Positions 47,756 to 61,449 of a DNA stretch of 64,000 bases are shown piece after piece. The position numbers were made by a program, and so were the translations under genes. The stretch comes from an uncultured delta proteobacterium (lineage in GTDB: Bacteria > Myxococcota_A > Polyangia > Polyangiales > Houyiibacteriaceae): NCBI GenBank assembly GCA_963699755.1, contig CAVOVB010000003.1:512001-576000 (forward strand), given 5' to 3'. Position 1 is the first letter of the stretch. Every line of letters starts with the position of its first letter. The notes under the pieces were generated by a model. That model was not told where the DNA came from, ran no database searches, and saw only the letters and a program-made list of their open reading frames with translations.

Positions 47756-48390
47756 ATGCAGATTTTCCCCCGCGAGTTGAACTACTTGCCCCTCGCGTTG
47801 GCCCTGGTGGCCGGCGGCCTCGGCGCAGGCGTGTTCATATTGTTCTGGGTCTACTTCACCCCTCCCAATCTGCAGGTTGGGTACACGCCGAAGCAACCCG
47901 TGGACTACAGCCACCGTTTGCACGCCGGAGAGCTTGGTCTGGACTGCCGCTACTGCCACTCCCAGGTCGAGCGCTCACACGAAGCGATGGTGCCTCCGAC
48001 GCAGACCTGCATGGGCTGTCACGCGGTGGTGCTCCCTGAATCGGCGAAGCTCGCGCCGGTGCGGCAGAGCTGGGAGACCGACGAGTCGGTCGCCTGGGTT
48101 CGCGTCCACCAGATTCCTGACCACGCGTTCTTCAACCATAGCGCTCACCTCCGCGCTGGCGTCGGTTGCGTTTCCTGCCACGGTCGGATCGACCAGATGG
48201 CGGTCGTAGGGGTGGTCGAGCCGATCGCGATGCAGTGGTGCTTGCAATGTCACCGCAATCCCGAGGAGCACATCCGGCCCAAGAGCGAGGTTACGAACAT
48301 GAAGTGGGAAGCTGACGAGGCTTGGATCGCCCAGCGCGCCGCGGTCGCCGCTGTTCTCAATCCACCTTTGCACTGTTCGGGGTGCCACCG

Positions 48391-48394
<4 letters not shown>
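47756..48394 (+). CDS. actA: Alternative complex III pentaheme cytochrome c subunit
   Basis: N-terminal TM and five CxxCH (CRYCH, CMGCH, CVSCH, CLQCH, CSGCH). Confidence 0.93.
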
Positions 48395-51504
<3,110 letters not shown>

Positions 51505-51510
51505 GAGCCG

Positions 51511-52971
51511 ATGAACTACGACGCACCAATCAAAGAACTCGGAGAGACGCCCCTTCTACCTGAAGGCACGACCGCCCACGACATCACCGAGACGATCGCA
51601 GGTGTCACGGAAAACCCCGCCCCTCGTGGTTGGTGGTTGCTGTTCCTGCTTTCGCTTTCCGGGCTCGGCGCAATGACCGCCGCGCTCGCGTACTTGTTCA
51701 TGCAAGGCGTGGGCGTTTGGGGCAACAACGCACCGGTCTACTGGGCCTGGGACATCACCAACTTCGTCTGGTGGATCGGTATCGGCCATGCGGGCACGCT
51801 GATCTCGGCTATTTTGTTCCTGTTCAGGCAGAAGTGGCGAACGAGCATCAACCGCTTCGCCGAGGCCATGACGGTCTTCGCCGTGCTTTGTGCCGGCTTG
51901 TTCCCGGCGATTCACACCGGTCGTCCCTGGTTCGACTATTACCTCTTCCCCATCCCGAACCAGATGGACATGTGGCCAAACTTCAAGAGCCCGCTCATGT
52001 GGGACGTCTTTGCGGTCAGCACCTACCTGACGATCAGTGTCATCTTCTGGCTCATCGGCTTGATTCCGGACTTCGCCACGCTGCGTGACCGGTCGAAGAA
52101 CCTGACCCGCAAACGTGTCTACGGTTCCTTGGCCCTCGGCTGGCGCGGCGCCCACCGGCACTGGCAACACTACGAGCGGGCCTACCTGATCTTCGCTGGC
52201 ATCTCGACGCCGCTGGTCCTTTCGGTCCACTCCGTCGTTTCGTTCGACTTCGCGACCTCGGTGGTTCCAGGCTGGCACACGACGATTTTCCCACCGTACT
52301 TCGTGGCCGGCGCCGTCTTCAGCGGCTTTGCGCTGGTGATGACCTTGATGTTGATCTGCCGCTCGATCTTCAAGCTGCACAACATCGTGACCATCCGGCA
52401 CCTGGACTTGATGAACAAGTTCATGCTCGGTACGGCGCTGCTGGTCGGCTACGCGTACGCGATGGAGTTCTTCATCGCCTGGTACTCCTCGAACCCCTAC
52501 GAGCAGTGGGTCTTCTTCCACAATCGCCTGGGCTGGGGCGAGCTCGACAGCAATGGAAATTGGGGTCCGCTCTGGTGGGCCTACTACGCGATGGTGTTCT
52601 GCAATGTCATCGTGCCACAGGTCTTTTGGTTCAAGCGCGCGCGCACCAGCGTTCCGATCATGCTCGTTGCGAGCGTTCTCATCAACATCGGGATGTGGTT
52701 CGAGCGCTTCGTCATCATCGTGACGTCGACCTACCAGGACTTCCTGCCGTCTTCCTGGGGCATGTTCCATCCGACCTCGATCGACATTCTGACCTACCTC
52801 GGTACCTTTGGATTGTTCTTCACCCTCTTCCTGCTCTTCGTTCGCTGGATTCCGATGATCGCCATTGCGGAGGTCAAGGGAAACTTGCCGGGGGCGCATC
52901 CCGACTTGCACGCCTTGGAGGCACATGACGAGGTACCGGACACACTGGTTGCGCCGGTCCCGGCGGAGTGA
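51511..52971 (+). CDS. actC: Alternative complex III NrfD-like quinol-binding subunit
   Basis: NFVWWIGIGHAGTLISA, WRTSINRFAEAMT, WHTTIFPPYFVAGA. Confidence 0.95.
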   Translation: MNYDAPIKELGETPLLPEGTTAHDITETIAGVTENPAPRGWWLLFLLSLSGLGAMTAALAYLFMQGVGVWGNNAPVYWAWDITNFVWWIGIGHAGTLISAILFLFRQKWRTSINRFAEAMTVFAVLCAGLFPAIHTGRPWFDYYLFPIPNQMDMWPNFKSPLMWDVFAVSTYLTISVIFWLIGLIPDFATLRDRSKNLTRKRVYGSLALGWRGAHRHWQHYERAYLIFAGISTPLVLSVHSVVSFDFATSVVPGWHTTIFPPYFVAGAVFSGFALVMTLMLICRSIFKLHNIVTIRHLDLMNKFMLGTALLVGYAYAMEFFIAWYSSNPYEQWVFFHNRLGWGELDSNGNWGPLWWAYYAMVFCNVIVPQVFWFKRARTSVPIMLVASVLINIGMWFERFVIIVTSTYQDFLPSSWGMFHPTSIDILTYLGTFGLFFTLFLLFVRWIPMIAIAEVKGNLPGAHPDLHALEAHDEVPDTLVAPVPAE

Positions 52972-52979
52972 GGCGAATC

Positions 52980-53558
52980 ATGGCTAACAACACGAAAAAG
53001 CCCGCCCTTTACCTGGCCGAATACGACACGCCGAACGCCATTGCCGCCGCCGCGATGAAGGTGCGCGACGCGGGTTACAAGAACTGGGACTGCCACACCC
53101 CGTACGCCATGCACGGCATGGACGAGGCGATGGGGCTCAAGCCCACCCGGATCGGCATCATTTCGTTCATCTTCGGGATGATCGGCGTCGCGACGGCAGT
53201 GTTCATGATTCAGTACACCAATGCGTTCGACTTCAACCTCTTGAACATCGGCGCCGGCTACCCGCTCATCGTCGGCGGCAAGCCGCCCGGTGCATTTCCC
53301 TCGATGGTGCCGATCATGTTCGAGCTCGGGATTCTTCTCACCGGCTTCGCGACGCTGTTTGGCTTGCTCGGATTGATCAAGCTGCCGATGTACAACCATC
53401 CGATCTTCGAGTCGGACCGGTTCGAAGCTGCGACGGACGACAAGTACTTCATCTCGATCGAAGCGGGTGACCAGAAGTTCGACCTCGATCGAACCAAGGC
53501 GCTGCTCGAGGCCACCAATCCGACCTACCTCGAGCTCATCGAGGAGGAGGTGCAGTGA
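52980..53558 (+). CDS. actD: Alternative complex III DUF3341 subunit
   Basis: HTPYAMHGMDEAMG, IVGGKP, PIMFELGIL. Confidence 0.92.
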   Translation: MANNTKKPALYLAEYDTPNAIAAAAMKVRDAGYKNWDCHTPYAMHGMDEAMGLKPTRIGIISFIFGMIGVATAVFMIQYTNAFDFNLLNIGAGYPLIVGGKPPGAFPSMVPIMFELGILLTGFATLFGLLGLIKLPMYNHPIFESDRFEAATDDKYFISIEAGDQKFDLDRTKALLEATNPTYLELIEEEVQ

Positions 53559-54181
53559 TGCGTGTCCTTCTCATCGTACTGGCACTCACGACGCTGGCGG
53601 CGGCTTGTGTGGGTGGCGAGACCGGCGAGCCGCCGATCGTCGGTATCCGGAACATGTACAACCAGCCGCGCTACGATACCCAGGAGCGACAACCGTTCTT
53701 CGCCGATCAACGCTCGATGCGTCCTCAGGTCGAGGACACCGTGGCCCGAGAGATGGACATAGGCCTCGCCTGGACGACTGGTCGCTCGGTCCAGGGAGAC
53801 GCTTGGCTCATGGAAGTGCCGCGCGAGATCGTCGGTCGAGGGGGAGGCGCTAGCGCCTTTCTCGACCGTGGCGAGGAGCGTTACAACATCTACTGCGCCC
53901 CCTGCCATTCCGTCTCCGGCGACGGCAAGGGAATGGTTTCGCGGCGTGCCGGGGCCCTCGGCGCAACCGGGCTCGTCGCTCCGAGCTTCCACGATGACCG
54001 GCTGCGGCACATCCCAGACGGCCAGCTCTTCGCGACCATCAGCAACGGCGTGAGAAACATGCCGGCCTACGCCTTCAACATCCCGGTCGACGACCGATGG
54101 GCGATCGTTCAGTACGTCCGCGCGCTGCAGCTGAGCCAGGCGCCCGCGGCCACGGCGAAGAACACGGAGCCATCCCAGTGA
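53558..54181 (+). CDS. actE: Alternative complex III monoheme cytochrome c lipoprotein
   Basis: Lipobox AAAC, MYNQPRY, CAPCH, MPAY, DRWAIVQYVRALQ. Confidence 0.92.
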   Translation: MRVLLIVLALTTLAAACVGGETGEPPIVGIRNMYNQPRYDTQERQPFFADQRSMRPQVEDTVAREMDIGLAWTTGRSVQGDAWLMEVPREIVGRGGGASAFLDRGEERYNIYCAPCHSVSGDGKGMVSRRAGALGATGLVAPSFHDDRLRHIPDGQLFATISNGVRNMPAYAFNIPVDDRWAIVQYVRALQLSQAPAATAKNTEPSQ

Positions 54182-55581
54182 CAAAAGCAGACGACAACGA
54201 CTATCGAGTCGGAAACGACGGCATCTGGCAGCGGGCCTGGCTCGCACCTCTGGGGATCGCCATCTTGGGCGGCGTGGCAGCGGTCCTGACGGCCGATGCG
54301 GATCGGCTTGGTTACGCCTACCTCTTTGGCCTGTTTGTGACCGCAACCTTCATGCTCGGCGCTCTGTTCTTGGTGTTGGTCCAATTCCTCACCGCGTCTT
54401 ATTGGGGCGTATCGTCGCGACGCATCGTCGAGGTCGTCATGTCTGGCGCGCCGGTCGTGGCGCTCTTGGCGATTCCCTTCTTGGCGGGTGTCGCCCTCGG
54501 CAAAATCGACATCTACGACGAGTGGCAGAGCGTCTCGGCTCAGGGTGCGCACGGTGACGACCATGGGGATTTCGATTCGGGCTCTGACAACGAGAGCGAT
54601 CGCGCGGAGCACAGCGCGCTCGGGCTCGGCGCAAGCGTGGCGCAGGCGCAGGGCCATGGCGAGGACCACGATGAAGATGCCGTCGATCACGGCGATACAG
54701 CCGCTCACGATCAGGGGCACCGCCACACTTCCCAAGAAACCGCGCTTCACCACGAGATTCTCGAAAAGAAGAGCGGCTATCTCAACACCACTGGCTGGGT
54801 CGCGCGGGGCATCGCGTATTTCGTCATCTGGTGCTTGATCGCCTTGGCGTACTTCGGTTGGTCAAGGCGCCAAGACGTGGATCGCGACCCAAGGCACACC
54901 GTTCGGATGCAGAGCCTGGCGGCACCGTCCCTCATCCTCTTTGCTGGCTCGCTCACCTTCGCTGCGTTCGATTGGCTGATGTCGCTCGAGGCTACCTGGT
55001 TCTCGACCATTTTCGGCGTCGTCATCTTCGCCGGCTCGGCGGTCTCCATTCTCGCCCTCACGATCCTGATTGGCCTGAGCCTCTACAAGCGCGGCCTGGT
55101 GGGTGACGCGATCAACATCGAGCATTTCCACGACCTGAGCAGGCTCATGTTTGGTTTCGTTTGCTTCTGGGCCTACGTCCAGTTCTCGCAGTGGATGCTG
55201 ATCTGGTACGCGGGCATTCCCGAGGAGGCCACTTGGTTCATGAAGCGCTGGGACGGTGGCTGGAAGTTCGTCTCCTACGTGCTGATCTTCGGCCACTTCG
55301 TTGCGCCCTTCGTCCTGCTGATTTCGCGTGTGCAGAAGCGAGCGCTTCCCTGGCTCCAGGTGATGTGCTTCTGGGTGATCTTCATGCACATCGTCGACAT
55401 CTACTGGTTCATTCTGCCGCAGGCTGGCGGTTTCCATGTTCAGCTCGCGGATATGGGAGCACTCTTCTTCGTCGGCGGTCTCTTCTTCGCATATGTCTTC
55501 TGGCAGCTCGGGAGGGTCCCCTTGGTGCCGGTCGGCGATCCCAGGCTTCAGCGGAGCCTTCACCTCCACCAAATATACTGA
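54178..55581 (+). CDS. actF: Alternative complex III membrane subunit F
   Basis: Multi-TM, FDWLMSL..WFSTIFG, SQWMLIWY.GIPEE..WF. Confidence 0.92.
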   Translation: MTKADDNDYRVGNDGIWQRAWLAPLGIAILGGVAAVLTADADRLGYAYLFGLFVTATFMLGALFLVLVQFLTASYWGVSSRRIVEVVMSGAPVVALLAIPFLAGVALGKIDIYDEWQSVSAQGAHGDDHGDFDSGSDNESDRAEHSALGLGASVAQAQGHGEDHDEDAVDHGDTAAHDQGHRHTSQETALHHEILEKKSGYLNTTGWVARGIAYFVIWCLIALAYFGWSRRQDVDRDPRHTVRMQSLAAPSLILFAGSLTFAAFDWLMSLEATWFSTIFGVVIFAGSAVSILALTILIGLSLYKRGLVGDAINIEHFHDLSRLMFGFVCFWAYVQFSQWMLIWYAGIPEEATWFMKRWDGGWKFVSYVLIFGHFVAPFVLLISRVQKRALPWLQVMCFWVIFMHIVDIYWFILPQAGGFHVQLADMGALFFVGGLFFAYVFWQLGRVPLVPVGDPRLQRSLHLHQIY

Positions 55582-55591
55582 GCGTGCACGG

Positions 55592-56239
55592 ATGAGTACG
55601 AAGCACAGAACACGATTTGAACCCCTCCGCTTCCTCCTCGCCGTTTCGACGTCGATGGTTCTTGGGATGGGCTGCGGCCAAAGCGATTCACCGAGGGCGC
55701 GCGTGAGCGCTGACGAGTACGAGATCATCAAGCAGCAGCAGGAGGAAGCCCTCCAAACCGGCACGATGCCTCTCGGCCAGGCAATGGCGGAGTACAGCTC
55801 CAAGCCCCGAGACCAGTTTGCTGCGCTTGCGCCAGAGCCGTCCGAGGACGAGTCGGCGCTCAACGGCTGGTCGTTCAAGGGCGCCGCTCCCATCGCGACG
55901 GGTGATGTCACCATGCCGCCCGAGTGCGTTGGTGGGGCAAACCCGGAAGCCTGTTGGGGCCAAAAGCTCAGCAACAGCAAGGGCTGCATGGCATGTCACT
56001 CGGTCGACGGCGTGAAGCAGCAACCTTGCCCGAACTGGAAGGGCCTCTTCGGAAGAGAACGGCCTCTGGTGAGCGGCGACACGGTCGTCGCCGACGAAGA
56101 GTACCTCACCAATTCGATCCTGAACTCCTGGGATCAGGTGGTTCAGGGCTACGGAAAGACGATGCCGCCGTACAATTTCCCCGAGCAGGAAATCGCGGCG
56201 TTGGTCGCCTACCTCAAGTCACTAGGAGAGGGCGGATGA
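55592..56239 (+). CDS. Monoheme cytochrome c lipoprotein (caa3 CoxB C-terminal-domain-like)
   Basis: Lipobox GMGC; GCMACHSVDG..WKGLFG..VVADEEYL.NSI..VVQGY..MP. Confidence 0.85.
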   Translation: MSTKHRTRFEPLRFLLAVSTSMVLGMGCGQSDSPRARVSADEYEIIKQQQEEALQTGTMPLGQAMAEYSSKPRDQFAALAPEPSEDESALNGWSFKGAAPIATGDVTMPPECVGGANPEACWGQKLSNSKGCMACHSVDGVKQQPCPNWKGLFGRERPLVSGDTVVADEEYLTNSILNSWDQVVQGYGKTMPPYNFPEQEIAALVAYLKSLGEGG

Positions 56240-56889
56240 TGAGCAGATCCCGCGCCGCGACGGTGGTGGTCTTGTCGGCGCTACCGGTTCTACTGACGGC
56301 CTGCCAGGAGCCCAGCCCGGATACGGCTAGTCTTAGGTACAGCGAAGACCTCTACGACGGCTGCGTCCAGTGTCACGGCGCTAGGGGCGAGGGCAACCCC
56401 GAGGTCGGGGCGCCTTCGATTGCGGGCCTCGAGCGATGGTACGTGAAGAGGCAGCTCCGTGGCTTCAAAAAAGGCTACCGTGGCTTTCACCCTGAAGACG
56501 TCGCTGGGAAGCGAATGTATCCGATGGCCCGCGCGCTCGACACGGATCAGAAAGTGGACGTGGTCGCCAACTACGTCGCTTCCATGGAGCCAACCCATCC
56601 GGCCCCGACCCTCGAGGGCGGCAATCCGGAAACCGGAAAGATCTACTTCGCTGTCTGCGTGCAGTGCCACGGAGCGAATGCGCGAGGCAATCTGGACGAG
56701 TTTGGTCCTCCATTGGCAGGCGCAAGCGATTGGTACCTGCTCACGCAGCTGCAGAACTTCAAGGCCGGGGTACGTGGCACCCAGCCCGACGACGCCATGG
56801 GTGCCAAGATGCGCCCGTTTTCCATGACGCTTCCCACCGAGCAAGCGATGAAAGACGTCATCGCGTACATTGGCACTCTATCCGAGTAA
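56236..56889 (+). CDS. Diheme cytochrome c4-like lipoprotein
   Basis: Lipobox LTAC; two CVQCHG, two WY..QL..FK.G.R repeats. Confidence 0.9.
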   Translation: MMSRSRAATVVVLSALPVLLTACQEPSPDTASLRYSEDLYDGCVQCHGARGEGNPEVGAPSIAGLERWYVKRQLRGFKKGYRGFHPEDVAGKRMYPMARALDTDQKVDVVANYVASMEPTHPAPTLEGGNPETGKIYFAVCVQCHGANARGNLDEFGPPLAGASDWYLLTQLQNFKAGVRGTQPDDAMGAKMRPFSMTLPTEQAMKDVIAYIGTLSE

Positions 56890-56907: not shown

Positions 56908-57018
56908 ATGGCAGGCAAGACGCGGGATCCAGACAACGAGGCACATTTTTGGTGGAAGTGGACCATGATCGGGGCCGCCATCTATATCGGTGTCGTGTTC
57001 GCTTTCATTTTGAACTGA
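56908..57018 (+). CDS. 36-aa single-TM protein (below ORF-track cutoff)
   Basis: MAGKTRDPDNEAHFWWKWTMIGAAIYIGVVFAFILN*; upstream GAGGG; fills the gap before coxB. Confidence 0.65.
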   Translation: MAGKTRDPDNEAHFWWKWTMIGAAIYIGVVFAFILN

Positions 57019-57034: not shown

Positions 57035-57775
57035 ATGCTTCAAGGAATTTACGACTTCATCAAGGGTATCTTCGAGCCGCTTGGCGATTACCTCATCGGT
57101 TCATCGGTCCCGGTAGCCTCGTCGTTCGCTGGGGACATCGACGCGCTCATTGCGCTCGTTGCCGTGTTCGTCGGCTTTTGGGCGCTTCTCGCCTACGCAG
57201 CGTTCTTCTTCTTGATCTTCCGCTTTCGGGCGCGAGAGGGGCATCGGGCGCAATACGTCACGGGGGAAGAGAAGGATCTCAAGCGATGGATCACCTATCC
57301 GCACGCAGCGATCATCCTTTGTGATCTGGTCATCGTCTTCATGGCGATCATGGTCTGGTACAATATCAAGCAGCGCCTGCCCGAGGCCGACAGCACCGTT
57401 CGAATCGTCGCGCAGCAATGGGCATGGAACTTCGTCCATCCCGGGCCTGACAACGAGCTCGACACCGATGACGACATCAATACTTTCAACGAGATGCATG
57501 TCCAAGAGGGCACGACCTATCACTACGAGCTCGTTTCCAAGGATGTCCTCCACGATTTCTCGGTGCCTGTGTTCCGTTTGAAGCAGGACGCTATCCCGGG
57601 CCGGGTCATGAAGGGCTGGTTCAAACCCACCCAGGCCGGCGAGTACGACATTCAGTGCGCCGAGATGTGTGGAATCGGGCACGGCATCATGGGCGCACGA
57701 ATCGTGGTCGAGACCCCTGAAGAACATGCGGCTTGGATGTCGCAGGGCAGCGCGGGCAAGCTTGCTTCCCGCTGA
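57035..57775 (+). CDS. coxB: Cytochrome c oxidase subunit II (CuA, no fused cytochrome c)
   Basis: Two TMs, QQWAWNF, DVLH, CAEMCGIGHGIM. Confidence 0.94.
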   Translation: MLQGIYDFIKGIFEPLGDYLIGSSVPVASSFAGDIDALIALVAVFVGFWALLAYAAFFFLIFRFRAREGHRAQYVTGEEKDLKRWITYPHAAIILCDLVIVFMAIMVWYNIKQRLPEADSTVRIVAQQWAWNFVHPGPDNELDTDDDINTFNEMHVQEGTTYHYELVSKDVLHDFSVPVFRLKQDAIPGRVMKGWFKPTQAGEYDIQCAEMCGIGHGIMGARIVVETPEEHAAWMSQGSAGKLASR

Positions 57776-57786
57776 ATGGAAAAGTC

Positions 57787-59517
57787 ATGGCTGAAGCAGG
57801 CACGATAGACACGCACGGCGCGCACGCGCACGACGCAGACCACGGGCACCACGAGCAGAGTTTCTTGAGCAAGTACATCTTCTCGACCGATCACAAGATC
57901 ATCGCGATGCAGTACATGTTCACCGGAATCGTCATGGCGCTGATAGGCGGGTACATGTCGTACGCGTTCCGCATGCAGTTGGCATTCCCAGGTGAAAGTG
58001 TCCCCGGCTACGGCGTCGTCTCACAGGGCGAGTACAACGCCTTGGTCACCAATCACGGGACGATCATGATTTTCTGGGTCGCCATGCCCATGCTGATCGC
58101 AGCCTTTGGCAACTACCTCATCCCGCTCATGATAGGCGCGGACGACATGGTGTTCCCGCGCATCAATCGCCTCTCGTATCAGATCTTCCTGATCAGCGCG
58201 ATCATTCTCATCGTTTCCTTTTTCGTTCCAGGTGGCGGCTTCGGCGGGGCCTGGACGTCCTATCCGCCGCTTTCGGCAAATGCGGAATACAACCTCACCC
58301 CGATGGGCGCGAGCCTGTGGCTCGTTGCCGTTGCGCTGGAGTTCGTGGCCTTCCTTCTCGGAGGCATCAATTTCATCACGACCCTCATGAATGCGCGCGC
58401 ACCCGGCATGAAGATGCACGACATCCCGATGGTACTGTGGATGATCGTCATCGCGAGCATCCTCTTCATGGCTTCGGTCGGTCCGCTCATTGCAGGAGCG
58501 GTCATGCTCTTCATGGATCAAGTGGTCGGCACCGGCTACTTCGACCCCGACCGTGGCGGCGATCCGGTTCTGTGGCAGCACCTCTTCTGGTTCTTCGGCC
58601 ACCCCGAGGTGTATGTCGTGCTCTTGCCGGCGATGGGGATCGTTGCCGAGATCATCTGCACCTTCGCCCGTAAGAAGCTCTTCAACTACAAGCTGATCCT
58701 CTACACCGCATTCGCGACCGGGATCATCAGCTTCTTCGTCTGGGCCCACCACCAGTTCGTCGCCGGGATCGACCCGCGCATGGCGAACATCTTCACCATC
58801 ACCACCCTGATCATCTCGATTCCCATCGCGGAGATGCTCTTCCTCTACATCGCCACGCTTTACGGCGGATCTATCCGTCTCACCACTCCGATGCTCTGGG
58901 CCTTGTCGTTCATCGCCGAATTCCTCATCGGTGGCATCACCGGCATCTTCCTGGGCGCGAGTGGCTCGGACATCTACTTCCACGACACGTATTTCGTGCT
59001 CGCTCACTTCCACTATACGTTCTTCCCGATCGCCATCATCGGGTTCTTCGCTGGAATAACCTACTGGTTCCCCAAGATGTTCGGACGAATGATGAACGAG
59101 ACGCTCGGCAAGATTCACTTTTGGGGCACGATCATCGCCTTCAACTTCATCTTCATCCCGCTCTTCATCCTGGGCGCCGCAGGTCAGCACAGGCGGATTT
59201 ACAACTTCCAGAACTTCCCCGACCTTGCGGGTATGCAGGACCTCAGGGTGATCGCGACGAGCGCCTTGCTCGTCATGCTCACCTTCCAGGTCATCTTCCT
59301 GTTCAACTTCGTGCACAGCCTCTTCAAGGGCAAGCCCGCCGGCAAAAATCCGTGGAAGGCCAACACGCTCGAGTGGACCGCGGACTCGCCGCCGCCGCAT
59401 GGCAACTGGCCCGAGCTCCCGAACTGCTACAGAGGCCCCTACGAGTACAGCGTGCCAGGCCGCGAAGAAGACTACTGGCCGCAGGACGTCCCACCGGACA
59501 CCGCCCCCGCCGAATGA
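57787..59517 (+). CDS. coxA: Heme-copper oxidase subunit I (A1 signature)
   Basis: TNHG, DMVFPRIN, GHPEVY, WAHH, HDTYF..AHFHY, RR pair. Confidence 0.96.
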   Translation: MAEAGTIDTHGAHAHDADHGHHEQSFLSKYIFSTDHKIIAMQYMFTGIVMALIGGYMSYAFRMQLAFPGESVPGYGVVSQGEYNALVTNHGTIMIFWVAMPMLIAAFGNYLIPLMIGADDMVFPRINRLSYQIFLISAIILIVSFFVPGGGFGGAWTSYPPLSANAEYNLTPMGASLWLVAVALEFVAFLLGGINFITTLMNARAPGMKMHDIPMVLWMIVIASILFMASVGPLIAGAVMLFMDQVVGTGYFDPDRGGDPVLWQHLFWFFGHPEVYVVLLPAMGIVAEIICTFARKKLFNYKLILYTAFATGIISFFVWAHHQFVAGIDPRMANIFTITTLIISIPIAEMLFLYIATLYGGSIRLTTPMLWALSFIAEFLIGGITGIFLGASGSDIYFHDTYFVLAHFHYTFFPIAIIGFFAGITYWFPKMFGRMMNETLGKIHFWGTIIAFNFIFIPLFILGAAGQHRRIYNFQNFPDLAGMQDLRVIATSALLVMLTFQVIFLFNFVHSLFKGKPAGKNPWKANTLEWTADSPPPHGNWPELPNCYRGPYEYSVPGREEDYWPQDVPPDTAPAE

Positions 59518-59527
59518 CGAGGCCGCG

Positions 59528-60106
59528 ATGAGCATGACGAGACCCATAGCAACGACCAGAACCGCCACGGGCATTCCAACGGGCAAGCTCGCCGTTTGGT
59601 GGGTCATCGGCTCGGAGATCGTGATTTTCGGAGGCTTGCTCGCCTCCTATGTCATGCATCGGCTGGGTCACCCCGAGTGGGCCGAATACGCATCCCACAC
59701 GAACACTTGGTTTGGCGGCGCCAACACCTTCGTGCTGCTGACCTCATCGCTCTTTGCCGTGCTCGCGCACCATGCTGCCGTGCATGGGGACGGAAAGACT
59801 GCGGCCAAGTGGCTCCTCGGGACCTGCGCGGGGGGCTTGCTCTTCCTCTGCATCAAGGCGGTCGAGTGGACGGGCGAAATTCAGCACGGCTACACGATCA
59901 CGGCCAACGGCTTTTGGAGCTTCTACTACACTGCCGCTGGGCTTCACGCGCTCCACGTCATCGCGGGCTGCATCATCATGCTGATCATCGCGAAAGAAGC
60001 CTGGGCCGGCAAAGAGCTTCATCGTGTCGAGCTCATTGGCATCTACTGGCACTTCGTCGATATCGTGTGGATTTTCCTCTTCCCGCTGCTCTACATCGCC
60101 AAGTGA
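59528..60106 (+). CDS. Cytochrome c oxidase subunit III-like
   Basis: SEIVIFGGL, NTFVLLTSS, GLHALHV, YWHFVDIVWIFLFPLLY. Confidence 0.93.
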   Translation: MSMTRPIATTRTATGIPTGKLAVWWVIGSEIVIFGGLLASYVMHRLGHPEWAEYASHTNTWFGGANTFVLLTSSLFAVLAHHAAVHGDGKTAAKWLLGTCAGGLLFLCIKAVEWTGEIQHGYTITANGFWSFYYTAAGLHALHVIAGCIIMLIIAKEAWAGKELHRVELIGIYWHFVDIVWIFLFPLLYIAK

Positions 60107-60118
60107 GGATGGACGATC

Positions 60119-60565
60119 ATGGCTGAACAGCAAGACCACGCACAAGACCACACAGGAGATCACAGCCAGGCCTTCTACTTGAAGATCTGGGGCATCTTGC
60201 TCGTGCTTCTCATCCTGAGCATTCTGGGGCCGATCGTTGCGCCGCACCTGGCGTTCGGTTTCCTAAAGGCATGGATGATTACTTTGATGACGGCGTTCGG
60301 AATCGCGGTCGTCAAGGCGTATCTCGTGGCCGCGAACTTCATGCACCTGAACATCGAGAAGAAATACATCTCGTACCTGCTTGCCACCATGTTGATGCTC
60401 ATGCTCCTGTTCTTTGCGGGCACCTCTCCCGACGTCATGAAGCACAAGGGCCAGAACTGGGAAAACGTCGCAGCGGAGACGGAAATCGAGCGAGCGCTCG
60501 AGGCCGAGGGCGCTGCGGCTGCACACGGCGAGCACGCCGGGGAACATCCAACGACCGAGCACTGA
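60119..60565 (+). CDS. Cytochrome c oxidase subunit IV-like
   Basis: YLKIWGILL, AVVKAYLVAANFMHLN.E. Confidence 0.88.
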   Translation: MAEQQDHAQDHTGDHSQAFYLKIWGILLVLLILSILGPIVAPHLAFGFLKAWMITLMTAFGIAVVKAYLVAANFMHLNIEKKYISYLLATMLMLMLLFFAGTSPDVMKHKGQNWENVAAETEIERALEAEGAAAAHGEHAGEHPTTEH

Positions 60566-60583: not shown

Positions 60584-61174
60584 ATGCCTGATGACGCACT
60601 AGGGCGCCCGTACGGCGTGCCAACCAGGCGCGAGCCTGTCGTTCCAAATGGCGTGCTGGGAATGCTGATCTTCGTTGCGACGGAGATCATGTTCTTCTCT
60701 GGGCTGATCAGCGCTTTCGTCATCGGGAAGAGCAATGCAATCGGGGGCTGGCCGCCTCCGGGGCAGCCTCGTTTGCCTATCGAAGAGACTGCCCTCAACA
60801 CCGGGGCGCTCCTCGCGAGCGGCATCGCGCTCTATTTCGCCAACCGCGCGTTCAAGAACGACTCTCCGAGCACGAAGCGACTTCTCGCGCTCGCAATCGG
60901 CCTTGGGGGCTTCTTCGTGCTCTTTCAGGGTGCGGAATGGGTTGCGCTGATCGGCGAGGGGCTGACGATCACCTCCGGGCAGCTGGGCGGCTACTTTTAT
61001 CTGCTCGTCGGGACCCACGCGCTCCACGTGGTCGCAGGCTTCATCATCCTATTGTACACGTATCAGAAGCTCTCCCATCACGACCTCGATCGCTTCACCT
61101 TCTGGCCCGCGCAGATATTCTGGTACTTCGTGGTTGCGGTTTGGCCGATCCTCTACTGGGAGGTGTACCTTTGA
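60584..61174 (+). CDS. Second cytochrome c oxidase subunit III-like protein
   Basis: LGMLIFVATEIMFF, NTGALLASG, GTHALHV, FWYFVVAVWPILY. Confidence 0.9.
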   Translation: MPDDALGRPYGVPTRREPVVPNGVLGMLIFVATEIMFFSGLISAFVIGKSNAIGGWPPPGQPRLPIEETALNTGALLASGIALYFANRAFKNDSPSTKRLLALAIGLGGFFVLFQGAEWVALIGEGLTITSGQLGGYFYLLVGTHALHVVAGFIILLYTYQKLSHHDLDRFTFWPAQIFWYFVVAVWPILYWEVYL

Positions 61175-61449
61175 TTCGTCTGGCTCGGATGAGCGTTGCG
61201 CTCGCGACCGTGGCGGTCGCTTGGGCCGCCGACCTGGTCTATGCTTGTCCCTCCTGCGCCTCGCCGCTCGAGGAGAATCGGCAAGCGTTCGTCGATACGA
61301 CCATCTTCCTCACGGTGGTTCCGCTCACGATGATAGGCGGTTTCGTCTGGTGGCTTCGCCGCAAGATTCGCGATCAGGATGAGCCGCCCGAGATCGCCGT
61401 TCCTCACAACCTCCTGCGTGATGCCGGCCGGTTCTCGAAGGGACGCTGA
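61171..61449 (+). CDS. Small exported CxxC membrane protein closing the cox operon
   Basis: TTG start overlapping previous stop, signal peptide then ACPSCA, one TM. Confidence 0.65.
   Translation: MIRLARMSVALATVAVAWAADLVYACPSCASPLEENRQAFVDTTIFLTVVPLTMIGGFVWWLRRKIRDQDEPPEIAVPHNLLRDAGRFSKGR

Follow-up and report, generated by a model that had tools for sequence, protein, structure and literature searches.

The stretch of DNA analysed here (hereafter the window; 64,000 nucleotides, positions 512,001 to 576,000 of contig CAVOVB010000003.1, assembly GCA_963699755.1) comes from an uncultured delta proteobacterium of the order Polyangiales. It carries a co-oriented run in which the alternative complex III (ACIII) genes actA-F are followed by genes for two cytochromes c, one monohaem and one dihaem, by coxB and coxA, and then by genes for subunits III and IV, another subunit III and a small membrane protein (Table 1). 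A sequence-only reading of coxA and coxB, which encode subunits I and II of a haem-copper oxidase, had proposed that the enzyme keeps the catalytic residues and the D-channel entry of A1-type oxidases and has lost the whole K proton channel.

CoxA was aligned with HMMER to subunit I of R. sphaeroides aa3 (1m56). Between helices VI and X the alignment contains no gaps and keeps one offset, 12, throughout. It places neither Lys nor Thr at the K-channel positions: A287, I347, M350 and L353 correspond to S299, T359, K362 and S365, respectively. Both the Ser-to-Ala change proposed for helix VI and the change of Thr, Lys and Ser to Ile, Met and Leu proposed for helix VIII, with a Glu beside the Lys site, are thus borne out. 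In addition, S344 corresponds to A356, A348 to G360 and E349 to I361, and the codons of E349 and M350 read GAG ATG at 58831-58836, as had been reported. All six His ligands, E274 (E286) and the cross-link tyrosine Y276 (Y288) are kept, as are D120, N109, N127 and N195 (D132, N121, N139 and N207 of the D-channel entry), W156 and R469/R470. The D channel is intact at its entry, as proposed, but not higher up, where S197 is replaced by Glu185, S200 by Ala and S201 by Phe; a Phe at the latter position is also found in 4/7 Lys-bearing CoxN-type rows. CoxB is a subunit II that binds CuA and has two membrane helices; in it, Leu82 occupies the position of the R. sphaeroides entry Glu (E101). Another departure from canonical enzymes lies after the haem a ligand His409, where Thr-Phe-x-Pro (TFFP in the window; CoxA 411-414, 59017-59028) stands in 85/85 covered rows in place of Val-Met-Ser-Leu and puts a Pro in helix X close to the haems.

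Conservation was scored over 86 core-clade rows, which were defined by CoxB His90 and form a single branch with a support of 100. At position 350, these rows have Met (71), Leu (13) or Ile (2) and never Lys; position 347 is Ile (67), Val (14) or Leu (5). Ser344 and Gln323 are each present in 86/86 rows, Glu349 in 83/86, Thr307 and Thr311 in 80/86 each, Glu378 in 72/86 and Glu185 in 84/84 covered rows. Tyr276 is found in 86/86, and the catalytic set and D-channel entry residues are invariant. Since the same substitutions recur throughout these rows, they are due neither to chance nor to sequencing error. On the CoxB side, His90 and Asp97 are present in 79/79 aligned rows from loci picked by CoxA similarity alone. 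The entry position varies, with Glu in 24/80 rows as against 54/55 of Lys-bearing enzymes, so the proposed loss of the entry Glu holds for the window protein and not throughout the clade. Three Opitutales loci (L030, L061 and L063), two of them apparently from isolates, have Ile at position 349 and keep CoxB His90 and Asp97. The cultured Pelagicoccus sp. SDUM812002 and Puniceicoccaceae K14 carry the form without Glu349. In three estuary metatranscriptome contig sets (5-7% word share), short contigs of relatives span coxA with its helix VIII, a coverage that need not reflect transcription.

We compared 178 CoxA-CoxB pairs, 123 Lys-less and 55 Lys-bearing; L062, L181, L192 and L212 (CoxB helix missing or misaligned), six duplicate loci and the window's own copy were left out. 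An Asp or Glu in the middle of CoxB helix II is present in 122/123 Lys-less and 0/55 Lys-bearing pairs, and Ser at the position of Ser344 (R. sphaeroides 356) in 122/123 and 2/55, respectively. The CoxB entry Glu shows the opposite distribution (26/123 and 54/55). Among Lys-less pairs, 83 have both Glu349 and His90, 37 have neither, 3 have His alone and none has Glu alone.

The AlphaFold model of CoxA (predicted local distance difference test score, pLDDT, 92; predicted template modelling score 0.92) has R. sphaeroides aa3 as its best match, with a root-mean-square deviation (rmsd) of 2.1 A, so a structure model agrees with an aa3 fold. The CoxA-CoxB complex model scored 0.86 (best control 0.00) and passed a mark that is reached by 116/157 solved complexes and 2/215 mismatched pairs; its contacts agree to at least 98%, and partner pLDDT is at least 86. 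The two subunits are a textbook pair, and hence this pass may be explained by memory or likeness. The modelled subunit I/II interface includes CoxA residues 324-327, 337-342, 344-345 and 348-349 and CoxB residues 89-90, 93-94 and 97. CoxA 307, 311, 323, 350 and 378 are not in the interface list, which is no proof of non-contact. The model therefore locates Ser344, Glu349, His90 and Asp97 in the I/II interface. A cavity at the mouth of the K path is lined, in enzymes already known, by helices VII and VIII together with helix II of subunit II (PMC10095113).

A genome scan (at least 600 candidate stretches) found the clade enzyme at no fewer than 598 genome loci. The 80 loci retained are 71-97% identical to the window CoxA. 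Their phylum labels number at least ten, Myxococcota (30) and Gemmatimonadota (14) being the most frequent, and 12 loci bear no label; Acidobacteriota, SAR324 and Opitutales are also represented. The best 120 protein matches to CoxA are 77-93% identical, and several clade members are labelled "cbb3-type subunit I" by NCBI, which is a mislabel. A metagenome-assembled genome titled Klebsiella pneumoniae (L031) bears the cassette at 71% identity, and its label appears doubtful.

In an IQ-TREE phylogeny of 32 chosen CoxA rows, all of the A family and without an outgroup, the clade is supported at 100/100 and nests in a nine-row Lys-less group (100/99) whose basal members have no Glu349. This group, CoxN-like enzymes and other Lys-less enzymes share a common branch (97/99). 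The PDB match E-values are 1e-124 to the A family and 1e-10 to the B family. CoxA scores below the NCBIfam CtaD cut-off (587 vs 671 bits). By its ligands and Tyr, the HPEVY Glu and D-channel entry, the CuA subunit II and its placement, the enzyme belongs to the A family (A1), and the canonical two-channel A1 set (K362, T359, S299, S365 and E101 of subunit II) is absent from CoxA and CoxB. A common origin with the Oligoflexia type (see below) gave p-AU 0.07, and a group of all Lys-less sequences received a support of 28/38; in these sequence comparisons, a single common origin of the Lys-less lineages is neither shown nor rejected. Sister Lys-less lineages (L108:8441-10573, L109:5921-8116, L155-L157 and L164-L166; 48-59% identity) have Glu185, Ser344 and the CoxB Asp and do not have Glu349, His90 or the small gene described below, and from their sequences they look like intermediates in the rebuilding of the interface.

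The window enzyme is ca. 38-40% identical to canonical A1 aa3 oxidases (R. sphaeroides 1m56/2gsm and its inactive K362M mutant 3om3, P. denitrificans 1ar1) and shares their fold (TM-score 0.84-0.86 by query), HPEVY motif, His ligands, Tyr, D-channel entry and CuA site. It differs from them at S299, T359, K362, S365 and E101(II) and in having E185, Q323, S344, E349, E378, H90(II), D97(II) and TFFP for VMSL. The nearest annotated genes in the plasmid collection (ca. 43-46%, one named coxN) are of the CoxN/coxMNOP type, subtype a-III of PMC6431628, with which the window enzyme has in common the COX3 doublet, the broad branch, F189, T339 and S315. Unlike the window enzyme, the CoxN-type rows all (7/7) retain Lys, Thr and Ser299, and they have no CoxB acid; the canonical K channel with which a-III is listed is absent here. 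The cassette order, dihaem cytochrome c, small helix, II, I, III, IV, III, also differs from coxMNOP. On a Hymenobacter plasmid (L153:7890-9773), a subunit I gene stands alone: subunits II and III are not annotated anywhere within 8 kb of it.

Lys-less A-type oxidases as such are already known. Degli Esposti et al. 2021 (PMC8239418) describe many, including an "Oligoflexia" and a "KC channel" A1 subclade, the latter in Elusimicrobia, Calescamantes and Methylacidiphilum, and acidophile A2-like cases appear in a preprint (10.1101/2020.03.01.968255). Like the window clade, the Oligoflexia and KC channel types combine the A1 signature with absence of the Lys and of the subunit II entry Glu, and they share Ser344 and the CoxB acid; unlike it, they keep Ser at T351 (P. 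denitrificans numbering) and lack E185, E349, H90 and Q323. Their sequences are 41-45% identical to P0001 and form separate branches (100/100 and 100/99). The subunit I patterns of Halobacteriovorax and Bacteriovorax in PMC8239418 are reproduced by L137 and L146 (about 44% identity to the window protein), and P0128 resembles the Elusimicrobia pattern. We considered whether the window enzyme is itself of the "Oligoflexia" subclade and rejected this, the residues at P. denitrificans positions 280/291/354/351/357/292 being Y S F S N D there and Y A M I L E in the window; L137-type loci (41-45% identity) match the Oligoflexia pattern instead. The window pattern (Tyr, Ala, Met, Ile, Leu, Glu) occurs in no row of the table of PMC8239418; one of its rows, HR19 (Thr354, Phe351), could be a member of the sister lineage. 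A literature search, with subscription papers and several supplements outside its reach, retrieved no description or biochemistry of the clade. Hence the "distinct subfamily" of the sequence-only reading stands as a tight clade while its novelty is partial: judging from sequences and the accessible literature, what appears new is the residue signature of the clade, the CoxB acid/His pair and a 36-residue gene.

This gene, a 36-codon open reading frame (ORF) between the dihaem cytochrome gene and coxB, encodes one hydrophobic helix, and its homologues align across phyla. A profile match lies just upstream of coxB in 78/82 core loci with enough sequence and in 0/88 other loci. Outside the profile set, 54/58 core loci were matched, the misses being L008, L060, L078 and L122; among 57,161 fragments, there was no match elsewhere at E < 0.01. 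The protein falls into no Pfam or NCBIfam family, and its top Atlas matches (0.86) are unnamed and serve as a lead only. There is a weak PDB match (E 0.048) to the 37-residue chain 8k9e_I, which we take to be a Chloroflexus ACIII subunit. Since most clade loci have no ACIII, this is probably a chance match between hydrophobic chains. On its distribution, the protein is likely a clade-specific subunit of the oxidase.

The remaining genes of the run are listed in Table 1. The counts for the dihaem cytochrome and actC are from 55 loci whose upstream sequence extends over 9 kb or more, and those downstream of coxA from 69 loci with 2.5 kb of downstream sequence.

Table 1. Genes and residues of the oxidase locus in the window
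Feature	Position	Strand	Remarks
actA, B, C, D, E, F (alternative complex III)	47756..55581	+	contiguous and co-oriented with the oxidase cassette
Monohaem cytochrome c	55592..56239	+	apparent chimera of ActG-like and CoxB cytochrome-domain parts, from sequence matches
Dihaem cytochrome c	56236..56889	+	two CxxCH; likely electron donor; core cassette member, 50/55 loci
Small gene, one membrane helix, 36 aa (P0273)	56908..57018	+	under the ORF-listing threshold; candidate extra subunit
coxB, subunit II, 246 aa (P0002)	57035..57775	+	CuA ligands H173, C208, E210, C212, H216, M219 intact
coxB membrane helix II, His90	57302-57304	+	L82 at entry-Glu position
coxB membrane helix II, Asp97	57323-57325	+	
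coxA, subunit I, 576 aa (P0001)	57787..59517	+	start ATG 57787; A1 signature HPEVY
coxA K-channel positions A287, I347, M350, L353	within 57787..59517	+	from alignment
coxA new polar E185	58339-58341	+	
coxA new polar S344	58816-58818	+	
coxA new polar E349	58831-58833	+	
coxA new polar E378	58918-58920	+	
coxA further new polar T307, T311, Q323	within 57787..59517	+	
Subunit III, paralogue 1	59528..60106	+	
Subunit IV	60119..60565	+	caa3-type subunit IV family, above NCBIfam cut-off; 69/69 loci
Subunit III, paralogue 2	60584..61174	+	COX3 doublet, cf. subtype a-III / coxMNOP operons
Small membrane protein, CPSC motif	61189..61449	+	frequent last cassette gene, 39/69 loci

ACIII, though adjacent here, is not a general part of the cassette; the dihaem cytochrome and the doublet of two separate subunit III genes (68/69 loci) are. 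A Pfam search with the small CPSC protein gave no significant match. Neighbourhood clustering, with cluster names judged by eye, revealed oxidase biogenesis genes and ACIII and no conserved nitrogen-oxide or regulatory genes, and scans for promoters, terminators and FNR-like boxes returned counts at chance level. In relatives of the same family and order, the genes behind ACIII encode ActG, SCO, a caa3 CoxB that has the entry Glu, and an A2 CoxA that keeps the Lys; the window cassette occupies this oxidase slot. Residues 50-93 of the monohaem cytochrome match the ORF at the ActG position of a same-family relative, L117 (45%, E 2.5e-7), and for residues 108-213 the match is to the cytochrome domain at the C-terminus of A2 CoxB from L113-L117 (38-47%, E 4e-14 to 2e-29). 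Judging by these matches, the gene is probably a trace left in the ACIII operon when an oxidase was displaced. The simplest reading seems to be that, in this genus, the Lys-less cassette displaced an ACIII-linked A2 oxidase, if the direction of the exchange is read correctly.

The clade enzyme is carried by 34/121 genomes of the window's order (genome G110 being counted as a non-carrier only) and by 13/15 in its genus, and in 21/34 carrier genomes it is the only A-type match. The window's own genome (100% complete, 9% contamination) also has two cbb3 matches and two matches to the nitric-oxide reductase dependent on cytochrome c (cNOR), haem A and haem O synthases and no bd oxidase match. The cbb3 matches are CcoN-CcoO fusion genes (L082 and L083, on contigs C7 and C1), and of the two NorB matches (L084 and L085, both on C1), L084 has NorC and NorQ-like neighbours; this duplication may reflect the 9% contamination. 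Haem A synthase is present in 5/5 congeners. In two congeners, G007 and G035 (100% complete, 1% contamination), the clade enzyme is the only haem-copper match found, with no cbb3 and no bd oxidase detected.

Taking these data together, we put a probability of about 0.5 on the following reading: the window encodes an intact A-family cytochrome c oxidase without the K-channel Ser, Thr and Lys and without the entry Glu, likely an aa3-type O2 reductase with a proton route rebuilt at the subunit I/II interface. That it reduces O2 is very probable, because the catalytic set is invariant, the fold matches aa3, CuA is intact, haem A synthase is present and the enzyme is often the sole A-type oxidase. 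Electrons from quinol would pass through ACIII, the mono- and dihaem cytochromes c, CuA and haem a to the haem a3-CuB-Tyr site, and the chemical protons of the reductive phase would arrive by a polar route at the interface, through the level of Glu349(I)-His90(II), Ser344 and Asp97(II); on the side of subunit I, Thr307, Thr311 and Glu378 would make it more polar. The new residues may face each other and conduct protons; for conduction by them we see slightly better than even odds, and the direction of uptake and the pumping stoichiometry we infer. Ser344 and the mid-membrane acid of subunit II, common to all related Lys-less lineages sampled, would be the oldest changes, and Glu349, His90 and the 36-residue helix later additions in the clade. 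Glu185 likely alters the tuning of the D channel, in whose upper part it lies. Because the surroundings acquired polar residues, the earlier claim that the whole K channel is lost is probably too strong, correct as it is that the K-channel residues are replaced. In a more specific form, which we regard as tentative and would not bet on, the second proton pathway would have shifted from subunit I to the I/II interface, Asp(II) and Ser344 replacing the Lys-Thr pair, Glu-His forming a gate and the 36-residue subunit sealing the rebuilt interface.

Several observations weigh against an interface route. The covariation counts are not independent, as there are few origins and possibly, from the sequences, one; on well-supported branches, the loss of Lys and the CoxB acid give 2 independent pairs, which is not significant, and E349 and H90 give 1, too few for significance. 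L089, with Gln at the Lys position, has neither Ser344 nor the CoxB acid. E349, H90 and E378 are not indispensable, since E349 is missing in three Opitutales members that keep H90 and D97, E378 in 14/86 core rows, and both E349 and H90 in the sister lineages. E349, H90 and D97 are in none of the 25 listed best residue pairs of the complex model. As to the physiological side, ACIII adjacency is local (actC in 11/55 loci), and a weak match to the alternative oxidase family (E ~1e-9) in G007 (C23:230644-231174) and G035 (C39:82601-83125) makes another O2 sink possible.

The same enzyme could take all of its protons through a modified D channel, with Glu185 near Glu274 as a second internal donor, the interface residues being structural or charge-compensating and pumping perhaps reduced. 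Glu185 is present in every covered core row; at its position, 8/8 sister rows have Glu or Asp and 0/55 Lys-bearing rows do, and the D-channel entry is invariant. An S197D mutant of R. sphaeroides is reportedly active but uncoupled. The K channel has, moreover, been proposed to be a dielectric channel (PMC7196763). Glu185 is not a general answer to the loss of Lys, though, because Oligoflexia-type and Elusimicrobia-type Lys-less enzymes do without it and yet have Ser344 and the CoxB acid, and the buried His and Asp of CoxB would be left unexplained; we consider this rather unlikely. It is improbable, in our view, that Asp97(II) admits some of the chemical protons from the periplasmic side, which would lessen charge separation and make a low-yield, high-flux oxidase. 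The helix register puts Asp97 in the membrane's periplasmic half, beside the start of helix VIII (residues 337-342 and 324-327, the pairing being deduced), the CoxB acid is the trait that Lys-less lineages share most widely, and access of protons from the P side is said to occur in P. denitrificans pathway double mutants. The added polar residues E349, H90, T307 and T311, however, are on the cytoplasmic half, and so wasteful a design is less expected in an enzyme that is often the sole A-type oxidase.

The analogy with NO reductases drawn by the sequence-only reading did not hold. It would make the helix VIII Glu a metal ligand or proton donor in nitric-oxide reduction or other altered chemistry, and besides the presence of such a Glu, the one other point in its favour is that NO reductases arose repeatedly from oxygen reductases (PMC11214002). 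NorB of cNOR shares the superfamily fold (22% identity to CoxA). Its helix VIII Glu, placed for the genome's own NorB by counting without gaps from the His-His pair, pairwise BLAST being too weak to place it, falls on Ile343, six residues before Glu349; the latter is in the modelled interface and not in the active site. NO reductases are without the Tyr (PMC11214002) that is invariant here, and the helix VI Glu residues of NorB are absent from CoxA. The CuB His set is intact, there is a subunit II with CuA as well as a haem A synthase, and the genome has separate cNOR genes. We therefore rejected this reading as very improbable. Least probable of all is a degenerate, inactive oxidase, a natural K362M null. 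In model enzymes, mutations at the channel ends abolish activity (PMC8239185), and yeast T316K retains 15% turnover (PMC7196763), but sequences that stay 71-97% identical over at least ten phylum labels, an intact cassette, invariant catalytic residues and the lack of any other haem-copper match in two near-complete genomes speak against decay.

The need of A-family oxidases for two proton channels and the part played by the K-channel Lys, which model enzymes of the family require, be it conduction or charge compensation, are still debated (PMC7196763). The clade amounts to a natural K362M/T359I/S299A enzyme under strong conservation and so offers a natural test of what the K channel is for, with S344, E349, E378, E185, CoxB H90 and D97 and the small subunit as candidate compensating elements for experiments. 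Should the pathway have moved to the I/II interface, haem-copper oxidases would have a third architecture for the delivery of substrate protons, one adequate for an enzyme that is the sole haem-copper oxidase of a cell and that takes the place of the canonical partner of ACIII. For many Myxococcota the clade enzyme is the principal A-type oxidase, and its H+/e- ratio bears on the energy yields assumed for these and the other carrier groups, Gemmatimonadota, Acidobacteriota, SAR324 and Opitutales.

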